Positions 2,743 to 58,730 of a stretch of DNA of 64,000 bases are shown here, piece by piece. The DNA is from Bacillota bacterium (GTDB lineage: Bacteria > Bacillota_I > Bacilli_A > RF39 > UBA660), in assembly GCA_015059485.1 (NCBI GenBank), contig SVAH01000003.1:57627-121626 (forward strand), given 5' to 3'. The translations under genes were made by a program, and so were the position numbers. The notes beneath the pieces were generated by a model. The model had not been told where the DNA came from, ran no database searches, and was given only the letters and a program-made list of their open reading frames with translations. Numbering within the stretch: position 1 is the stretch's first letter; every line of letters begins with the position of its first letter.

Positions 2743-3744
2743 TTATTCCTCTCTTTCCATGGCTTCCTTAAATTTTGGAAGTAATCCTATATTATTTGTT
2801 CTGTGAGGTGGAAGTCCATATAAATCATGTCCAGGAAATTCATTTGCTTCAATAAAACAAATATCGCCATTATTTGTTACACATACATCCCAACCTATGT
2901 ATCCAACTTCTGGCACTTCTAGCGCTGCTTCTTCGCAAAAATCTTTAACTTCATTCCATTTTGGTACTTTAAACCCAACTATTTTCTTATTAGTTAAAGG
3001 ATGAGTATCATATAAGTTTCCTTTTTTATCTATTGCTTTATAAATAATTTCTCCACTTTCAACTTCAATTGGTACACATAATCCTTCATGATTAAAATTA
3101 TCAACATGATTATGATTATTGCCAATTCTAAGAAGTGCAGTTACTACTTTTCCTTTTAATGTAACTACTCTAAGTGTATTAATTGAATCTGGATGCAATT
3201 CTTTAATTTTTCTATTTTGCTCAACTAATTCTTCGGCCAAAATCTGATTACTTGTATACAATTTATCATGTAGTTTTTTAATATTTTGCTTTTTAACTTC
3301 AATTACTTCTACACCTTTTCCACAAGATTCTTTAGTTGGTTTAGCTATAAATTTTGAATGTTTCTTACAAAATTCTTCAAATTCATTATAATTATCTTCT
3401 TTTATTTCTAACCAATCTCTTTTTAGATATTTATCAAATATTTTATTAAATTCTATTTTATCATTAAATATCTTCATATATTTTGGATCATTATATTTTT
3501 TTATTATTTCATTATTAATACCACGAGTTATTACAGTACGTCTTTGATACTTATTCATAGTATACATTTCAAATAAATTGTAATCTATATATCCAGCTTG
3601 ATATTTTATTCCACAATATACAATATCAAAGAAAATTAATAATTTACTTTTATTTGTTTTTTTGTGTACATCTGATATTGTATTAAAAAATCCTTTATAA
3701 TTCATTTTAAAAATTCTTTTAAATAAATATTTTATTTTTCTCAT
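2743..3744 (-). CDS. ATP-grasp domain protein (sugar-transfer-associated / TupA-like ATP-grasp family)
   Basis: N-terminal pattern SKLLIFFDIVYCGIKYQAGYIDYNLFE and C-terminal ATP-grasp-like FIEANEFPG match my memory of this family. Not verified by search. Confidence 0.6.
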   Translation of the reverse strand: MRKIKYLFKRIFKMNYKGFFNTISDVHKKTNKSKLLIFFDIVYCGIKYQAGYIDYNLFEMYTMNKYQRRTVITRGINNEIIKKYNDPKYMKIFNDKIEFNKIFDKYLKRDWLEIKEDNYNEFEEFCKKHSKFIAKPTKESCGKGVEVIEVKKQNIKKLHDKLYTSNQILAEELVEQNRKIKELHPDSINTLRVVTLKGKVVTALLRIGNNHNHVDNFNHEGLCVPIEVESGEIIYKAIDKKGNLYDTHPLTNKKIVGFKVPKWNEVKDFCEEAALEVPEVGYIGWDVCVTNNGDICFIEANEFPGHDLYGLPPHRTNNIGLLPKFKEAMEREE

Positions 3745-3803
3745 ATTATCCCTCTAAAAGTATTATATCATTTATTGAAAAAATTAAAAGAAAAAAACCG
3801 CAA

Positions 3804-4025
3804 TTAAGCAGTTTTCTTTTCGTCTGTAAGTCCATATTTTTTGTTGAACTTTTCAATATTACCAGTTTTTTTAGCTCTTCCTTGAGCACCTGTATAGAAT
3901 GGATGACATTCAGAACAAACTTCTACTTCAATTCCATCTAATTTAGTAGATTTAGTTTTGAATGTTGCTCCACAAGCACATTTAACTGTAATTTCTTGCA
4001 TTTCTGGATGTAAATTCTTTTTCAT
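3804..4025 (-). CDS. rpmE: 50S ribosomal protein L31
   Basis: [19 protein letters not shown]...[18 protein letters not shown] sits 8 nt upstream of the ATG at 4025. The longer track ORF start (4100) lacks an RBS. Confidence 0.95.
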
Positions 4026-4120
4026 TAATAATTCTCCTTTCGCCATGTTATATTCATAACATAGTATTTTTTGCTCATCCACTGTATTATACCATATCAT
4101 GATATTTTATCAACTATTAT

Positions 4121-4633
4121 TTACTTAATTTTTAAACTTTTTTTAACTTTTCCCACTACAAATACTATTTTATCGCATTTTTTTACTGCAATATTCTTTC
4201 CAATTGCTTTTCCACCAACTGTTAATGTTGATATAGCTGATGCGACTACTATTGAAATAATTGCAATATTTATTTTACTTGTATATGAAATAGCTACAGC
4301 TAAAGTTGCTCCTAATGTACCACTAAGTATTCCACATATATCTCCAATAACATCATTACAAATACTACTAATTTTAGCAGAATTTCTAAGTAATGTTATA
4401 CATTCTTTAGCTCCATATTTCTTTTTAGAAGCTAAAGCATGAAATCCTTCTTCTTTACTTGTTAATACTGATACTCCTACCATATCAAATATAATCCCTA
4501 TAAATATTACAAGAAGCAAGATAATTGCAAGTACTAGATTATTTACATTTGATATAAGTGTTGCAATAGTGCCAAATATAGCAGCTAAAACAAATGTTAA
4601 TATAAATATTTTAATAATCCACTTATCTTTCAT
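4121..4633 (-). CDS. small four-TM membrane protein, DUF21/CNNM-TM-like, Lys-rich C-terminal tail (OapA-like candidate)
   Basis: Four hydrophobic helices. The loop LTSKEEGFHALASKKKYGAKECITLLRNSAKISS resembles the DUF21 pattern (sls..l..la..g.kgAk..l.ll.n). Basic tail KAIGKNIAVKKCDKIVFVVGKVKKSLKIK. GGAGAG RBS precedes the ATG at 4633; the track start at 4645 is a TTG inside the RBS. Confidence 0.6.
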   Translation of the reverse strand: MKDKWIIKIFILTFVLAAIFGTIATLISNVNNLVLAIILLLVIFIGIIFDMVGVSVLTSKEEGFHALASKKKYGAKECITLLRNSAKISSICNDVIGDICGILSGTLGATLAVAISYTSKINIAIISIVVASAISTLTVGGKAIGKNIAVKKCDKIVFVVGKVKKSLKIK

Positions 4634-4649
4634 AATTCTCTCCAAAACA

Positions 4650-5147
4650 TAAAAAAAATGAATGGTCTACTATAAATTAATTTTATGGCTTAGGTCGAGT
4701 AGAATTTCTCCATTATCTACCTTAGGTTACCCACCGGCGATTTCTCTTTAAAGATAACGGCTAGTCGTTTCCGAGTTAGCGACTCGATTACCACTTAGTC
4801 CATACCTCAAAACTTATAGTAATACACTCTAGAGGTTTTCCCAAACACATAGTGACTGTCCTTATTCGCTTTTGCAATTTTTGTTTCATTCGAAATTCAA
4901 ATTGTAACTTTATCGTGAAATCGAAATCCCCAAAAATCACTCACGACATGTGCTTTTTTCACTTATTCGCGCAGTACAAGGAATATTTTATATGCCATTA
5001 TAAGGTATCCTTATACTTTAAATCATATATCCACCCCAATCTGGGCGAAAGAAGCAGATATACAAAGTGCGTTTTGCACAATTGGTAGATTTTTAGCCCT
5101 ACCTTCAAACAATGTATGTGACTAGAATAATGCACCACACATTATAC
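4650..5147 (-). ncRNA. candidate large structured non-coding RNA / long leader (OLE-like?), about 500 nt
   Basis: A 550-bp gap with no credible ORF. Visibly GC-richer than its surroundings (e.g. ccaccggcga, ggctagtcgtttccgagttagcgactcg). Many local hairpins on the minus strand (AAUGUGUG/CAUACAUU, UAUAAGG-aua-CCUUAUA, CGAGU-cgcua-ACUCG, CAAUUU/AAAUUG, GGUAG/CUACC). A perfect promoter lies upstream. No internal terminator before the downstream 4-TM gene. Ends are approximate. Confidence 0.5.
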
Positions 5148-5151
5148 GTAA

Positions 5152-5180
5152 ATTATAGCATATTATTATTATTTTGTCAA
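5152..5180 (-). promoter_or_regulatory. consensus sigma-A promoter with extended -10 (TTGACA-17-TGCTATAAT)
   Basis: Minus strand reads cTTGACAaaataataataataTGCTATAATttacgta. The -35 is at 5180-5175 and the -10 at 5157-5152, with an exact 17-nt spacer. Both hexamers are perfect and a TGn is present. Confidence 0.7.
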
Positions 5181-5195
5181 GTTTGTGTAAACGCT

Positions 5196-6452
5196 TTATT
5201 CTTCTATTTTAATATCAGCTCCAACATTTGACAGTTTTTCAATAATATTTTCATAACCTCTTAAAATATGCTCAACATTACTTATTTCTGTTTGCCCTTC
5301 AGCTATTAATCCCGCAAGTACCATTGCAGCTCCAGCTCTTAAATCTGTTGCTTTAACTTTTTTTCCCTTATACTCTGTTTTTCCACAAATTATTTCTGTA
5401 TTGTCTTTAACTTCTATATTAGCTCCCATATTATTTAAATACTTTACATGTCCCATTCTATTATCATAAATAGTTTCTTCAAAAAATGATACACCATTTG
5501 CTTGTGTTAATAGTACACACATTGGTTGTCCCATATCTGTAACAAATCCTGGGAATACTTGTGATTTTATTGACGTATGCTTTATCTTTTCAGCGGCACT
5601 TATCGTTAACTCAAAATCTTTAATATTATATTTTATTCCCATTTCATCAAACTTAGATAATAATGACTCTAAATGTTCTTCTATTACGCCATTAATTTTT
5701 AAGTTATCACCAATTAAAGCTCCAGCTATTATATATGTTGCTGCTTCTATTCTATCTGGAATTACTTCAATTATTCCTTTATGTAAATAATCAACTCCTG
5801 TTATTTTTATTTCACTGGTTCCTGCGCCAGTTATTTTAGCTCCCATATTATTTAAAAATGTTGCTATATTAACAATTTCTGGTTCTTTTGCTGCATTATA
5901 TATTACTGTTTTTCCTTTAGCTTTTACTGCGGCAAGCATTATGTTTATAGTTGCACCAACTGATGGAAAATCGAGATATATTTTACTTCCTTTTAACTCA
6001 TCAGCATGTATTATATATTTATCATCTTCAATTGTAATAGTAGCACCTAATTGTTCAAATCCTTTTAAATGAAAATTAATTGGTCTAGAACTTTTTCCGA
6101 TGTTACATCCTCCTGGTAAAGCTATTTCAACATGCTTACATTTTCCAAGTAACGCTCCCATAAAATAATAAGAAGCTCTCAATTTAGAAGAAAGATCTTC
6201 TTTTATATATACATTTTCTAACTTAGAACTATCAATTATTAAAGAATCTTTTTCATCTGTAACATTACAATTTAGTGTTTCTAATATATTTATTAGTGCT
6301 TTTTTATCAGTGATATTAGGCACATTATATATTGTAGTATTTTCATCAGAAAGAATTGCTGCGGGTATTAAAGCCACAGCGCTATTCTTAGCTCCACCAA
6401 TGTTAATAGTACCACTAAGTTTATTACCACCATTAATTATTATTTTTTTCAT
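5196..6452 (-). CDS. murA: UDP-N-acetylglucosamine 1-carboxyvinyltransferase
   Basis: MKKIIINGGNKLSGTINIGGAKNSAVA..., active-site region LPGGCNIGKSSRPIN. The ATG at 6452 has an AAAGGA RBS. The GTG at 6461 is too close to the RBS. Confidence 0.95.
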   Translation of the reverse strand: MKKIIINGGNKLSGTINIGGAKNSAVALIPAAILSDENTTIYNVPNITDKKALINILETLNCNVTDEKDSLIIDSSKLENVYIKEDLSSKLRASYYFMGALLGKCKHVEIALPGGCNIGKSSRPINFHLKGFEQLGATITIEDDKYIIHADELKGSKIYLDFPSVGATINIMLAAVKAKGKTVIYNAAKEPEIVNIATFLNNMGAKITGAGTSEIKITGVDYLHKGIIEVIPDRIEAATYIIAGALIGDNLKINGVIEEHLESLLSKFDEMGIKYNIKDFELTISAAEKIKHTSIKSQVFPGFVTDMGQPMCVLLTQANGVSFFEETIYDNRMGHVKYLNNMGANIEVKDNTEIICGKTEYKGKKVKATDLRAGAAMVLAGLIAEGQTEISNVEHILRGYENIIEKLSNVGADIKIEE

Positions 6453-6495
6453 ATTATCCACTATCCTTTGTTACTTATATTTTATAATATAACTT

Positions 6496-7068: not shown

Positions 7069-7566
7069 TTATTTATTATTTAATATTTTGCTAACTAAAG
7101 TTGTATATTCTATATCTGTAGTATTTTCATCATCGATTAAACATAATGGTGGATATAAAACGCACCACCAATTTTCTCCTAAACCGCTTCCTATTGTTAT
7201 AACTAATGATTCATAGTTTCCCGATTCATAATTTATTCCTTTATATGTTTTTTCTGGGAAAAAATTACTACCAAATGTTACTTTATATTCATCTGTATAT
7301 CGATTAACTATTGAATTTATTTTATTTAAATTGTTTACAATTAATTGCCTACTTTCATCTATATTACTTGATTTTTCAAGTATCGGCATAACTTCTTTAT
7401 TAATATCATTTTTAATTTTTAATTTTAAAGCCTGATCTTCTAAATTATTACTATTAGCAATAATTCTATATCTTATAGATGCTGCTGGAATAATCATTTC
7501 ATCTTGTTTATTAAAATATAAAAATACTATTGTTAAAATAAATAAAAACACTACTATTTTTTTCAT
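7069..7566 (-). CDS. spoIIR: stage II sporulation protein R
   Basis: Signal peptide, then IRYRIIANSNNLEDQALKLKIKN and GENWWCVLYPPLCL motifs. Confidence 0.9.
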   Translation of the reverse strand: MKKIVVFLFILTIVFLYFNKQDEMIIPAASIRYRIIANSNNLEDQALKLKIKNDINKEVMPILEKSSNIDESRQLIVNNLNKINSIVNRYTDEYKVTFGSNFFPEKTYKGINYESGNYESLVITIGSGLGENWWCVLYPPLCLIDDENTTDIEYTTLVSKILNNK

Positions 7567-22175: not shown

Positions 22176-22249
22176 GGGGCTTTAGCCAAGTGGTAAGGCA
22201 AGGGACTGCAACTCCCTGAGCACCAGTTCGAATCTGGTAGGCCCCTCCA
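22176..22249 (+). tRNA. tRNA-Cys (anticodon GCA), CCA encoded
   Basis: Cloverleaf by hand: acceptor GGGGCTT/AGGCCCC, anticodon arm AGGGA-CTGCAAC-TCCCT, T-arm CACCAGTTCGAATCTGGT, 3-prime TCCA. Confidence 0.9.
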
Positions 22250-38525: not shown

Positions 38526-38882
38526 TGGTGGAGTAGATGGGAGTCGAACCCATGTCCATAATACCCTATTATACAACGTCTACAAGTTTAGTGAGATTTA
38601 TTATTTAATTATATTACTGGCTATCACGTACCTATAATATAACGAGTTTAGTAAGTATTCATTAATTTACCTAAACAATAAATTAGTATATCCTATATAG
38701 TTAAACCTTTATAATTCCCTATAGGAGAAGGTCTTATAAAAGTGCTCCTACCTATCTATTAGGCAAATGCTGGAGCAAAGCTATAATCAGCTTTGTCATT
38801 TAATTTTATTTGTGCATTTAAAGTATGCCTACTACTTGCAGTCATATCTAGTAGTACATGTCGAAACCAATAAAACTACCCC
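38526..38882 (-). ncRNA. ssrA: tmRNA (transfer-messenger RNA)
   Basis: The 5-prime end GGGGTAGTTTTATTGGTTTCGACATG and the 3-prime end GGGTTCGACTCCCATCTACTCCACCA form the tRNA-like domain. Internal tag ORF at 38815-38762: GCA CAA ATA AAA ... GCA TTT GCC TAA TAG = AQIKLNDKADYSFAPAFA. Confidence 0.92.
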
Positions 38883-39160: not shown

Positions 39161-39487
39161 ATGAAGAAATATGAAGTTGTGAAAGAAAAAAGAATATTTG
39201 ATAAAATCATAAAAGAAAGTAAATTTGTTAAAAATGAAACTTTTGTTATCTATTATGAAGAACATAGTGAAAATTTTCCAAAATTTGGAGTAGCTGTTGG
39301 TAAAAAAATAGGTAATGCAGTTACACGTAATAAATATAAGAGAATTATAAGAAATTTAATAGATAGTAATAAATTTTTATTTAAAAATACTTATGATTAT
39401 ATTATAATAATAAAGAAAAGTTGTTTAAACAAGTCATATAATGAATTAAATGATAGTTTAAACCAATTAATAAAGGAGAAGCTATGA
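39161..39487 (+). CDS. rnpA: ribonuclease P protein component
   Basis: Basic 108-aa protein with RNR-like motif KIGNAVTRNKYKRIIRN. Position rpmH-rnpA-yidC. Confidence 0.9.
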   Translation: MKKYEVVKEKRIFDKIIKESKFVKNETFVIYYEEHSENFPKFGVAVGKKIGNAVTRNKYKRIIRNLIDSNKFLFKNTYDYIIIIKKSCLNKSYNELNDSLNQLIKEKL

Positions 39488-49479: not shown

Positions 49480-50835
49480 GTGATAAATTTGAAAATTGAG
49501 GAAGTTTGGAATGAGTTTATGAATAAGTTAGAGAAAGAACTTGCTCCAACTACTTTTAGAACATGGTTTAAAGATATAAAGTTAATTAATGAATATAACA
49601 ACAAATTAACAATTCAAGTACCCATGGAAATTCATAAGAGTATTTTAAGAGAAACATATGGTAATTTAATTGAAGATACTTTATTTAGTATAACAAATGA
49701 AAATTTTGAATTTAATTATATTACTGAAGCTGAAAATCTTGATACTCTAACAGAAATTAATGCTGAATTAAATGAAAATGATACTTCATTTGAAACAAAT
49801 TTGAATAAAGATCTCAATTTTGATAATTTTGTAGTAGGTTCATCCAATAGACTTGCTTATGTATCAGCAATGACTGTTGCACAAAATCCTGGTAAAATTC
49901 ATAATCCATTATTTATATATGGCAAAAGTGGAATAGGAAAAACTCATTTAATGCATGCTATAGGAAACTATATACATCAAAATACCAATAAAAAAGTATT
50001 ATATACAACTAGTGATGCATACATGACTGATTTTACTGGGATTGCTGATATAAAAAATTTAGATAATCAAATTGAATATGCAAATAACTTTAAGAATAAA
50101 TATAGAAATGTTGATGTATTAATAATAGATGATATACAATTTTTAGCTAATGCTGAAAAAACTCAACAGGAATTCTTCAATACATTTAATGATTTACAGC
50201 AATCTAATAAACAATTAATAATATCATCTGACAAAAGTCCAAATGATTTAAAAAAAATCGAAGAAAGACTTAGATCAAGATTTACATGGGGATTACCTGT
50301 AGATATCTATCCACCAGATTTTGAATTAAGGGTAGAAATTATTAAACAAAAAATCAAAAATACCTCATTAGCTGGACTAATGGATAATAATGTAATTGAG
50401 TACATTGCAAATTCTTGTACAAATGATGTTAGACACTTAGAGGGTACAATTAATAGATTAATGGCTTACACAGCAATGGTTGTACCTGAAAAAATAGATG
50501 TTGAATTTGCAAATGCGGCATTAAATGATTATTTAAATAAAAACATTTATTCTGAAAATAATATAGAAAGTATTCAAAAAGCGGTTAGTGATTATTACAA
50601 TATAACTGTTGAGGATTTAAAAGGTAAAAAGAAAAGTGCTAAATTTACTTTTCCAAGGCAAGTTGCAATGTATCTTTCTAGAATGCTTACTGACGAATCA
50701 TTCCCAAGAATAGGCTTAGAATTTGGTGGAAGAGATCATTCCACAGTTATCCACAGTATCAACAAAATCGACAGTGAATTGAATACAAATTTAGATTTAA
50801 AAAATGATATTGAAAACATTAAAAATAATTTATAA
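49480..50835 (+). CDS. dnaA: chromosomal replication initiator protein DnaA
   Basis: AAA+ Walker A GKSGIGKTHLMHAIGN, Walker B LIIDDIQF, domain IV RDHSTVIHS. The start codon is uncertain (GTG at 49480 or TTG at 49489). Confidence 0.95.
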   Translation: MINLKIEEVWNEFMNKLEKELAPTTFRTWFKDIKLINEYNNKLTIQVPMEIHKSILRETYGNLIEDTLFSITNENFEFNYITEAENLDTLTEINAELNENDTSFETNLNKDLNFDNFVVGSSNRLAYVSAMTVAQNPGKIHNPLFIYGKSGIGKTHLMHAIGNYIHQNTNKKVLYTTSDAYMTDFTGIADIKNLDNQIEYANNFKNKYRNVDVLIIDDIQFLANAEKTQQEFFNTFNDLQQSNKQLIISSDKSPNDLKKIEERLRSRFTWGLPVDIYPPDFELRVEIIKQKIKNTSLAGLMDNNVIEYIANSCTNDVRHLEGTINRLMAYTAMVVPEKIDVEFANAALNDYLNKNIYSENNIESIQKAVSDYYNITVEDLKGKKKSAKFTFPRQVAMYLSRMLTDESFPRIGLEFGGRDHSTVIHSINKIDSELNTNLDLKNDIENIKNNL

Positions 50836-58592: not shown

Positions 58593-58730
58593 TTGTTAGC
58601 AACTATTGCAAAAAGTAATTTTATTTGATAAATTAATAACGTGCAACAAATATATTGTAAATTGGTCAGGATTGGAAAATAGCAGCCATATCAATCACTA
58701 TTTGTGTGCACTTTTTTTATGGAGAGTAAT

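Follow-up and report, generated by a model that had tools for sequence, protein, structure and literature searches.

What fills the 562 bp between the stop codon of murA (5196) and the ATG of a gene for a 170-aa membrane protein (4633) in the 64-kb stretch of Bacillota contig SVAH01000003.1 analysed here, referred to as the window? The gap holds only short open reading frames (ORFs) of 46-78 aa, none of which is supported, and with a G+C content of 35% in 4650-5100 it is richer in G and C than its flanks (17-31%) and than the whole window (25.1%). A first, sequence-only reading of the locus had recognised both properties and proposed an RNA-protein particle of the OLE/OapA type, probably with a divergent and shorter OLE RNA. 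The full-length Rfam match, covariation and OapA homology described below bear this proposal out, and we are close to certain that the locus is an ole-oapA unit, in which a gene for a short-form OLE (ornate, large, extremophilic) RNA lacking stems P7 and P8 is followed 28 nt further on by oapA. Both the RNA-protein system and its short form have been described before, and the locus is no new kind of element. The sequence-only reading had also proposed an Infernal search with Rfam models, a covariation check in orthologous regions and a structure comparison of the membrane protein, and each of these was carried out.

Scanning the whole window against Rfam 15 with Infernal produced a match to the OLE family (RF01071) at 4646-5154 on the minus strand, which scores 259.5 bits (E = 2.5e-72; gathering score 50 bits) and covers model positions 1-616 without truncation. 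No family besides OLE appeared at E <= 1 in a permissive rescan of 4500-5300, be it a riboswitch, RNase P, ROOL, GOLLD or raiA. The two fallbacks offered earlier, another large RNA class or a long regulatory leader, are not supported. When the OLE model structure is laid on the window RNA, 99 of the 110 Rfam pairs are canonical. The 477-nt structured core has a minimum free energy (MFE) of -121.8 kcal/mol (z = -3.12; none of 100 shuffles is equally stable), and the unconstrained MFE fold independently recovers the long-range OLE helices. The conserved OLE sequences are all found in the window RNA, as they are in 59-60 of 60 relatives: the L4 loop CUAAAAAU, L5.1 GCCCA, L6.1 AUGGCA, the CUAG of P2 and the segment GGACUAAGUGGUAAUC. 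Furthermore, oapA lies directly 3' of the RNA. The length of the RNA, about 100 nt below that of a typical OLE, and its different gene neighbourhood might suggest a new large structured RNA class, OLE-like merely through preceding a small membrane protein. We consider this extremely improbable, as the RNA aligns end to end with the OLE covariance model and retains the conserved loops and single-stranded sequences, the length gap is mainly due to the loss of P7 and P8, while a shortened P9 tip and nucleotides lost from one small hairpin account for the rest, and the short form has already been published as OLE variant 2 (PMC11332333). The full-length match and the covariation together refute a separate class.

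Relatives of the 170-aa protein were sought in one genome per species, giving 80 loci, nearly all of them from uncultured gut metagenome-assembled genomes (MAGs) labelled Bacilli, Tenericutes, Mycoplasmatota, Candidatus Coprovivens or Erysipelotrichaceae. The nearest species-level relatives are 44-60% identical to the window protein, the best 57-60%. OLE was found directly upstream of the oapA homolog in all 17 loci scanned with Rfam (204-239 bits, 464-519 nt) and, using an nhmmer profile, upstream of it in 78 of the 80. One locus (L004, oapA at 494-1003) has 493 nt of upstream sequence, yet no nhmmer OLE match; OLE may be absent there, or the copy may be divergent or misassembled. The covariation set comprised 60 distinct short-form OLEs in a MAFFT alignment that was not fitted to structure. 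The tested structure had 142 pairs and combined the Rfam pairs with five long-range helices that belong to the current published model but are unpaired in Rfam, namely, in RNA coordinates, P1 (17-21/489-493), P2 (22-26/327-331 and 30-33/323-326), P3 (35-40/304-309), P3.1 (42-48/294-300) and P4a (75-79/202-206). The features of the unit are listed here in the direction of transcription, with pairing and occurrence figures taken from this set.

5152..5180, minus strand: sigma-70-type promoter of OLE, with -35 TTGACA at 5180-5175, a 17-nt spacer, TG at 5159-5158 and -10 TATAAT at 5157-5152; 12/12
4646..5154, minus strand: OLE RNA gene (RF01071), short form; Rfam match, covariation, MFE z = -3.12
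5138-4662, minus strand: OLE structured core from P1 to P1, 477 nt; Rfam match plus the added long-range helices
5107..5138, minus strand: 5' strands of the long-range helices P1, P2 and P3/P3.1; added by hand, tested on the alignment, recovered in the MFE fold
5138-5134 with 4666-4662, minus strand: P1; 99% paired, with a U-A/A-U swap
5133-5122 with 4832-4824, minus strand: P2, including the invariant CUAG; long-range helix
5120-5107 with 4861-4846, minus strand: P3/P3.1, 13 bp in total; 5/6 pairs of P3 and 7/7 of P3.1 change on both sides
5084..5103, minus strand: P4 hairpin with the A-rich loop CUAAAAAU at 5097-5090; 100% paired, loop invariant in 60/60
5080-5076 with 4953-4949, minus strand: P4a, a long-range helix enclosing P5/P5.1 and P6/P6.1; 92.7% paired, 5/5 pairs change on both sides
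5066-5022, minus strand: P5/P5.1 with loop GCCCA at 5046-5042; loop motif in 59-60/60
5017-4973, minus strand: P6/P6.1 with loop AUGGCA at 4998-4993; loop motif in 59-60/60
4972-4954, minus strand: 19-nt linker in place of P7 and P8; model alignment and comparison with a full-length OLE (L058)
4865..4947, minus strand: P9, of intermediate length, 83 nt; covariation (helices 11-13 of the tested structure)
4667..4843, minus strand: 3' domain; Rfam pairs and covariation (helices 16-23 of the tested structure)
4843-4833, minus strand: P10 hairpin, within the 3' domain
4822-4667, minus strand: P12-P14 multi-stem domain, within the 3' domain
4780-4760, minus strand: P13 with GAAA tetraloop at 4771-4768 and a one-base bulge; a GNRA loop closes P13 in 57/60
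4738-4719, minus strand: P14.1 with GUAA loop, within the 3' domain
4634..4661, minus strand: OLE-oapA spacer, 28 nt, with a U8 tract at 4658-4651 and the ribosome-binding site GGAGAG at 4643-4638; no promoter
4121..4633, minus strand: oapA, 170 aa; homology, motif, transmembrane (TM) helices and structure model

Across the alignment, 89.5% of 8,228 cells are paired, compared to 35.5-44.8% when the partners are slid by 1-3 columns. Both sides change at 87 of the 142 pairs, compared to 26-38 in the slid controls, and covariation scores 0.351 where the controls stay at or below 0.088; 500 shuffles gave no value as high on any of the three measures. Both-side variation is also seen in the helices that had been added to the Rfam structure, at five of six pairs in P3, all seven in P3.1 and all five in P4a. 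P1-P6, P9, P10 and P12-P14 are maintained by compensatory changes in the 60 related RNAs, which supports the OLE fold in the orthologous regions. A local GUGC/GCAC hairpin after P4 was dropped in favour of the long-range P4a, which covaries. The short hairpins that the sequence-only reading had picked out in the gap fared differently from one another: GGUAG/CUACC is real and corresponds to P4 with its invariant loop, whereas AAUGUGUG/CAUACAUU, UAUAAGG/CCUUAUA, CAAUUU/AAAUUG and the local CGAGU/ACUCG pairing showed no covariation (57.8% paired, with 297 of 500 shuffles as good) and no excess of compensatory change, and these four overlap and exclude supported helices. The AGUCG/CGACU pairing likewise overlaps supported helices, at 368-373 and in P13.

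The same alignment bears on whether the gap codes for a small protein, either through the 78-aa plus-strand ORF at 4852-5088 or through the minus-strand ORFs of 46-50 aa. Such ORFs do exist mechanically; however, the substitutions between homologs compensate each other pairwise, as would be expected of an RNA, many indels in the alignment have lengths that are not multiples of three, the plus-strand ORF runs against the direction of transcription in the neighbourhood, and OLE accounts for the whole stretch. We therefore regard a coding function of the gap as practically out of the question.

Turning to the protein partner, we identify the 170-aa protein as OapA by its homology and motif. Translation most likely starts at the ATG at 4633, behind GGAGAG, and the homologs begin at the same place. 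Hydropathy analysis places TM helices at about residues 9-27, 34-52, 95-115 and 121-139, and basic residues concentrate at the N-terminus, in the loop 58-90 (7 K/R) and in the C-terminal tail (10 K/R in the last 29 residues), all on one face, in agreement with the four TM helices and Lys-rich tail noted by the sequence-only reading. The DxxxD motif, which has been named as distinctive of OapA and absent from CNNM domains (PMC11332333), is present as DVIGD at residues 94-98, with D94 and D98 invariant in 36 homologs. BLASTP comparison with the reference OapA (PMC12286853 supplement), the sequence modelled in a cryo-electron microscopy study of OLE, gives 40% identity along the entire protein, over 173 columns (E = 2e-30), the reference having been machine-read from a PDF and possibly containing small errors; the window protein is the shorter of the two, at 170 aa versus 194 aa. 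It shares with OapA its position adjoining ole on the 3' side, the four TM helices, the invariant DxxxD, a predicted basic cytoplasmic face and the absence of CBS and CorC domains.

The relation of this protein to the CNNM (formerly DUF21) domain is apparent only through the homolog set and the structure comparison. Searched on its own, the protein matches no Pfam or NCBIfam family significantly, and a PDB sequence search with it returned no match; weak PF01595 (CNNM) matches come from 30 of the 36 homologs. The AlphaFold2 model of OapA is all-helical (predicted local distance difference test 85.5, predicted template modelling score 0.76), and its best four PDB matches in Foldseek are CNNM domains, of archaeal CorB (7M1T, 7M1U) and bacterial CorC (7CFF), with probability 1.00. 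These superpose with a template modelling score of 0.52-0.64 and a root-mean-square deviation of 2.7-3.0 Å over about 130 residues. CorB 7M1U has been published as the best structural match of OapA (PMC11332333), and the likeness to the DUF21 TM domain of Mg2+ transporters pointed out by the sequence-only reading is thus sound. The window OapA shares the TM fold of MpfA, CorB and CorC, with weak PF01595 sequence similarity, and differs from CorB in having four rather than three TM helices (PMC11332333) and in carrying DxxxD. As it stays below the PF01595 gathering score (13.6 bits versus 28.4) and ends after the TM domain, with neither a CBS pair nor a CorC domain, it falls outside the transporter family proper.

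Transcription of the unit was assessed from its promoter and spacer. The sequence-only reading had singled out a textbook promoter, TTGACA-17-TATAAT, and this is indeed the best site in the scanned region 3700-5400, matching 12/12. The predicted transcription start lies at about 5146-5144, some 6-7 nt before P1. Of 60 relatives, 58 have an equivalent promoter, defined by at least 5/6 matches in the -10 element plus a spaced -35 element, at 8-14 nt before P1; 48 score at least 11/12 and 57 carry the TG. The clade has thus conserved a dedicated strong promoter for OLE, predicted to start the RNA immediately ahead of P1, in contrast to Halalkalibacterium halodurans, where ole lies inside a long polycistronic operon (PMC12265935). 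At the other end of the RNA, 42 of 53 relatives have 21-39 nt between P1 and the start of oapA, and 43 of 53 have a Shine-Dalgarno-like motif. This short spacer leaves no room for a second promoter, and co-transcription of OLE and oapA is therefore likely to be the rule. As had been stated earlier, the gap contains no internal terminator, and no canonical hairpin terminator is present between OLE and oapA; the U8 tract does follow immediately on the last helix and resembles the U-rich 3' tail of the Rfam OLE consensus. A terminator-like match at 5049-5030 was rejected, since it is the tip of stem P5. A few relatives with longer spacers of 60-94 nt (L009, L013, L015) have an AU-rich hairpin and a U-run between OLE and oapA, for example AAAAAGAUUCAUAAUGAAUCUUUUUU, which looks like an intrinsic terminator or attenuator.

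This arrangement, with a promoter before OLE, none between OLE and oapA, a 28-nt spacer carrying the ribosome-binding site and a U8 tract right behind the last helix, makes the RNA physically the 5' part of the oapA transcript. It could accordingly be a long cis-regulatory leader, such as a riboswitch or Mg2+ sensor padded with filler, which acts on translation of the membrane gene or on termination ahead of it and yields no stable functional RNA. We judge such a leader to be very unlikely: OLE alone, and no riboswitch or leader family, matched 4500-5300 at E <= 1, the conserved fold of about 20 helices goes far beyond what a leader needs, and the OLE RNA of H. halodurans is an abundant stable RNA with knockout phenotypes of its own (PMC12265935).

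In order to place the window OLE within its family, we compared it with full-length and short forms. Full-length OLE (RF01071; H. halodurans, Clostridium acetobutylicum) measures about 577-630 nt, and the window RNA, at about 480-510 nt, is some 100-120 nt shorter. Model positions ~198-277, which form a pair of hairpins (44 and 36 positions) separating P6 from P9, are represented by 15 nt in the window RNA; a full-length Clostridiales OLE (L058, 629 nt, 454.9 bits) carries both hairpins at those positions. By their order the two absent hairpins are P7 and P8, and the window RNA is short because it lacks them. We therefore file it as a short form, variant 2 by the description in PMC11332333. 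This variant, which "entirely lacks P7 and P8", is often found in gut Bacilli of the uncultured RF39 clade (Fernando and Breaker 2024, mSphere; PMC11332333). The assignment is by description only: P7 and P8 are gone but the remaining conserved nucleotides and helices persist, the host genomes are of the Bacilli type and come from uncultured gut bacteria, and 259.5 bits falls in an intermediate range, well under the 455 bits of the full-length L058, with the published variant 2 cut-offs (235-310 bits) coming from a different model (PMC11332333). Compared with that description, the window copy keeps the GNRA loop and bulge of P13, has a P9 longer than that of most relatives, and lies amid sporulation genes (spoIID, spoIIR, spoIIQ-like), whereas the RF39 and TANB77 clades are called reduced-genome symbionts (PMC11332333). 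The short forms of the 17 Rfam-scanned loci, at 204-239 bits, may in part have been left out of the published 2024 census counts, which take variant 2 from 235 bits upwards with their own model; scores from the two models are not directly comparable.

With full-length OLE the window RNA has in common the two-domain architecture, P1-P6, P9, P10 and P12-P14, as well as the L4, L5 and L6 loops, the CUAG of P2, the GGACUAAGUGGUAAUC segment and an oapA right downstream. Its P3 and P3.1 add up to 13 bp, close to the ~12 bp that are typical of OLE and have been put forward as its membrane-spanning stretch (PMC12265935). P13 retains both determinants of OapB binding (PMC7936274), a GNRA tetraloop and a single-base bulge (GCUA(A)(C)UCG-GAAA-CGA(C)UAGC). 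It differs from full-length OLE in its murA/rpmE neighbourhood and in lacking P7, P8, the AUCGAUGAAG segment and a UGGCCA-type P9 kissing loop.

These absences have to be set against our assignment, together with several further points. The AUCGAUGAAG segment that follows P4a in full-length OLE, where it provides a P4a-proximal palindrome and one strand of the OapC-bound kink-turn formed by J4a/5 with J5/6 (PMC9723947), is missing from the window OLE, and GAUGAAG occurs in 0 of 60 short forms; the kink-turn may be built from other nucleotides in these RNAs. No self-complementary apical loop, the dimer kissing loop of P9, was found in the window P9; the distal part of P9 is truncated in 51 of 60 relatives, and that of the window RNA is longer than those 51. 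Since these parts of full-length OLE are missing, the short form may have other protein partners and other dimer contacts than OLE in the model species. A tblastn search with reference OapC and bS21 found no homolog of either in the 64-kb window, which is uninformative given that the window is a piece of a genome. Complete co-transcription of OLE and oapA is not certain either, as the U8 tract and the terminator-like hairpins of some relatives suggest that part of the transcripts may end before oapA. Finally, expression and processing of the RNA, its place at the membrane and its binding by OapA are predictions for this organism.

Self-complementary apical loops do occur in several of the nine short forms whose P9 is extended (L009, L013, L014, L043), with UGAUCA seen three times alongside UUUGCAAA. 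Such loops would fit a P9 kissing-loop dimer contact that has been retained with an altered sequence.

Loss of P7, P8, the kink-turn segment and the palindromic P9 loop, in organisms whose relatives have been described as having reduced genomes largely without OapB and OapC (PMC11332333), might also be expected of a decaying, non-functional OLE remnant. This, too, we hold to be a very small chance. The helices are kept by compensatory changes across 60 genomes so diverged that OapA is just 44-60% identical, more than 150 positions of the OLE alignment are invariant, the near-consensus promoter is kept in 58 of 60, and oapA is intact with an invariant motif, all of which are marks of purifying selection.

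What such a unit would do can be approached by analogy with better-studied species. OapA has been found to bind OLE and bring it to the membrane in H. halodurans and two Clostridium species, where OLE forms a homodimer via L4, L5/L6(/L7) and the P9 loop, cells depend on the particle when stressed by cold, alcohol, Mg2+ or their carbon source, and OapA is maybe a divalent-cation transporter related to MpfA (PMC12265935, PMC12286853, PMC10898510). The P4 loop forms an A-A dimer bridge in OLE structures determined by cryo-electron microscopy (cryo-EM; PMC12286853, PMC12265935), and the dimer-bridging loops L4 CUAAAAAU, L5 GCCCA and L6 AUGGCA are invariant or nearly so in the short forms. On the molecular level, transcription from the unit's own promoter would run through OLE into oapA to give a single transcript, and OapA would be inserted into the membrane beside the RNA that it binds. 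As in H. halodurans, the RNA would then dimerise and be held at the membrane, or span it, through OapA, and the particle would help the cell to withstand stresses such as too much Mg2+, cold, alcohols or a poor carbon supply, perhaps through control of divalent-cation flux via the CNNM-like OapA. The window copy would play the same role with fewer contacts, keeping L4 and L5/L6 but having neither P7 nor a palindromic P9 loop, and its particle is probably made without OapC.

Tentatively, and with rather more doubt than conviction, we hypothesise a minimised OLE particle, consisting of one RNA made from its own promoter, that works without P7, P8, the OapC kink-turn and the P9 kissing loop and is functionally tied to the envelope, sporulation and translation genes of the block spoIIR-mntP-murA-ole-oapA-rpmE-rpiB-spoIID. 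If true, it would mark the irreducible core of OLE function and offer a smaller target for structural and reconstitution work on what is among the largest bacterial non-coding RNAs, one whose biochemical activity is not known in any species and which cryo-EM work suggests spans the membrane as a dimer. Nothing in the unit is categorically new, the family (2006), the OapA partnership (2011), and the relation of OapA to CNNM and the short variants (2024) all having been published. Its value is modest and lies in being a clean minimal example, with a 477-nt core, the L4 and L5/L6 bridges, a 13-bp P3/P3.1, a dedicated promoter and a conserved cell-wall and sporulation neighbourhood.

The genes around the unit follow the order prfA-prmC-spoIIR-(mntP)-murA-OLE-oapA-rpmE-(ATP-grasp)-rpiB-spoIID, murA (5196-6461, minus strand) being an NCBIfam equivalog above cut-off. 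The sequence-only reading had contrasted the murA/rpmE context with a classical isoprenoid-gene neighbourhood of ole (ispA, dxs), but this context is not peculiar to the window, since about 16-25 of the 80 related loci share it (murA in 16, rpmE in 25, with many loci ending at contig edges). In published work ole clusters with metal-ion homeostasis, translation, sporulation and cell-wall genes (PMC12265935) and OLE correlates with proteins of sporulation (PMC11332333), which the murA/rpmE/spoIID synteny fits. Genes for sporulation lie on either side of the OLE unit, at 496-2087 and 7069-7566, with spoIID and spoIIR above curated cut-offs and a SpoIIQ-like protein below. OLE hosts are Bacillota, typically anaerobic or extremophilic ones, and the window carries Bacillota-type sporulation genes and the delta subunit of RNA polymerase. 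Taking the flanking sporulation genes together with relatives labelled as Tenericutes/Mycoplasmatota-like gut MAGs, the lineage probably sporulates.

Right after the oapA stop codon, at 4113-4086 on the minus strand, there is another promoter with a TG extension, TTGATA-16-TATAAT. Between it and rpmE lies an L31-Firmicutes ribosomal-protein leader (RF03156, 35.7 bits, 4064-4034, minus strand), and the same leader occurs by rpmE in three relatives. Other Rfam RNA genes in the window are a tRNA (22176-22246, plus strand), a tmRNA (38526-38882, minus strand) and a small signal recognition particle RNA (58635-58720, plus strand). Gene orientation turns from minus to plus at about 39 kb, between the tmRNA and rnpA (39161-39487), and the GC skew flips its sign. 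The genes rnpA-yidC-jag-mnmE-mnmG-rsmG-parB-dnaA-dnaN are co-oriented, with dnaA at 49480-50835, so that the skew minimum is not next to dnaA but about 10 kb upstream.

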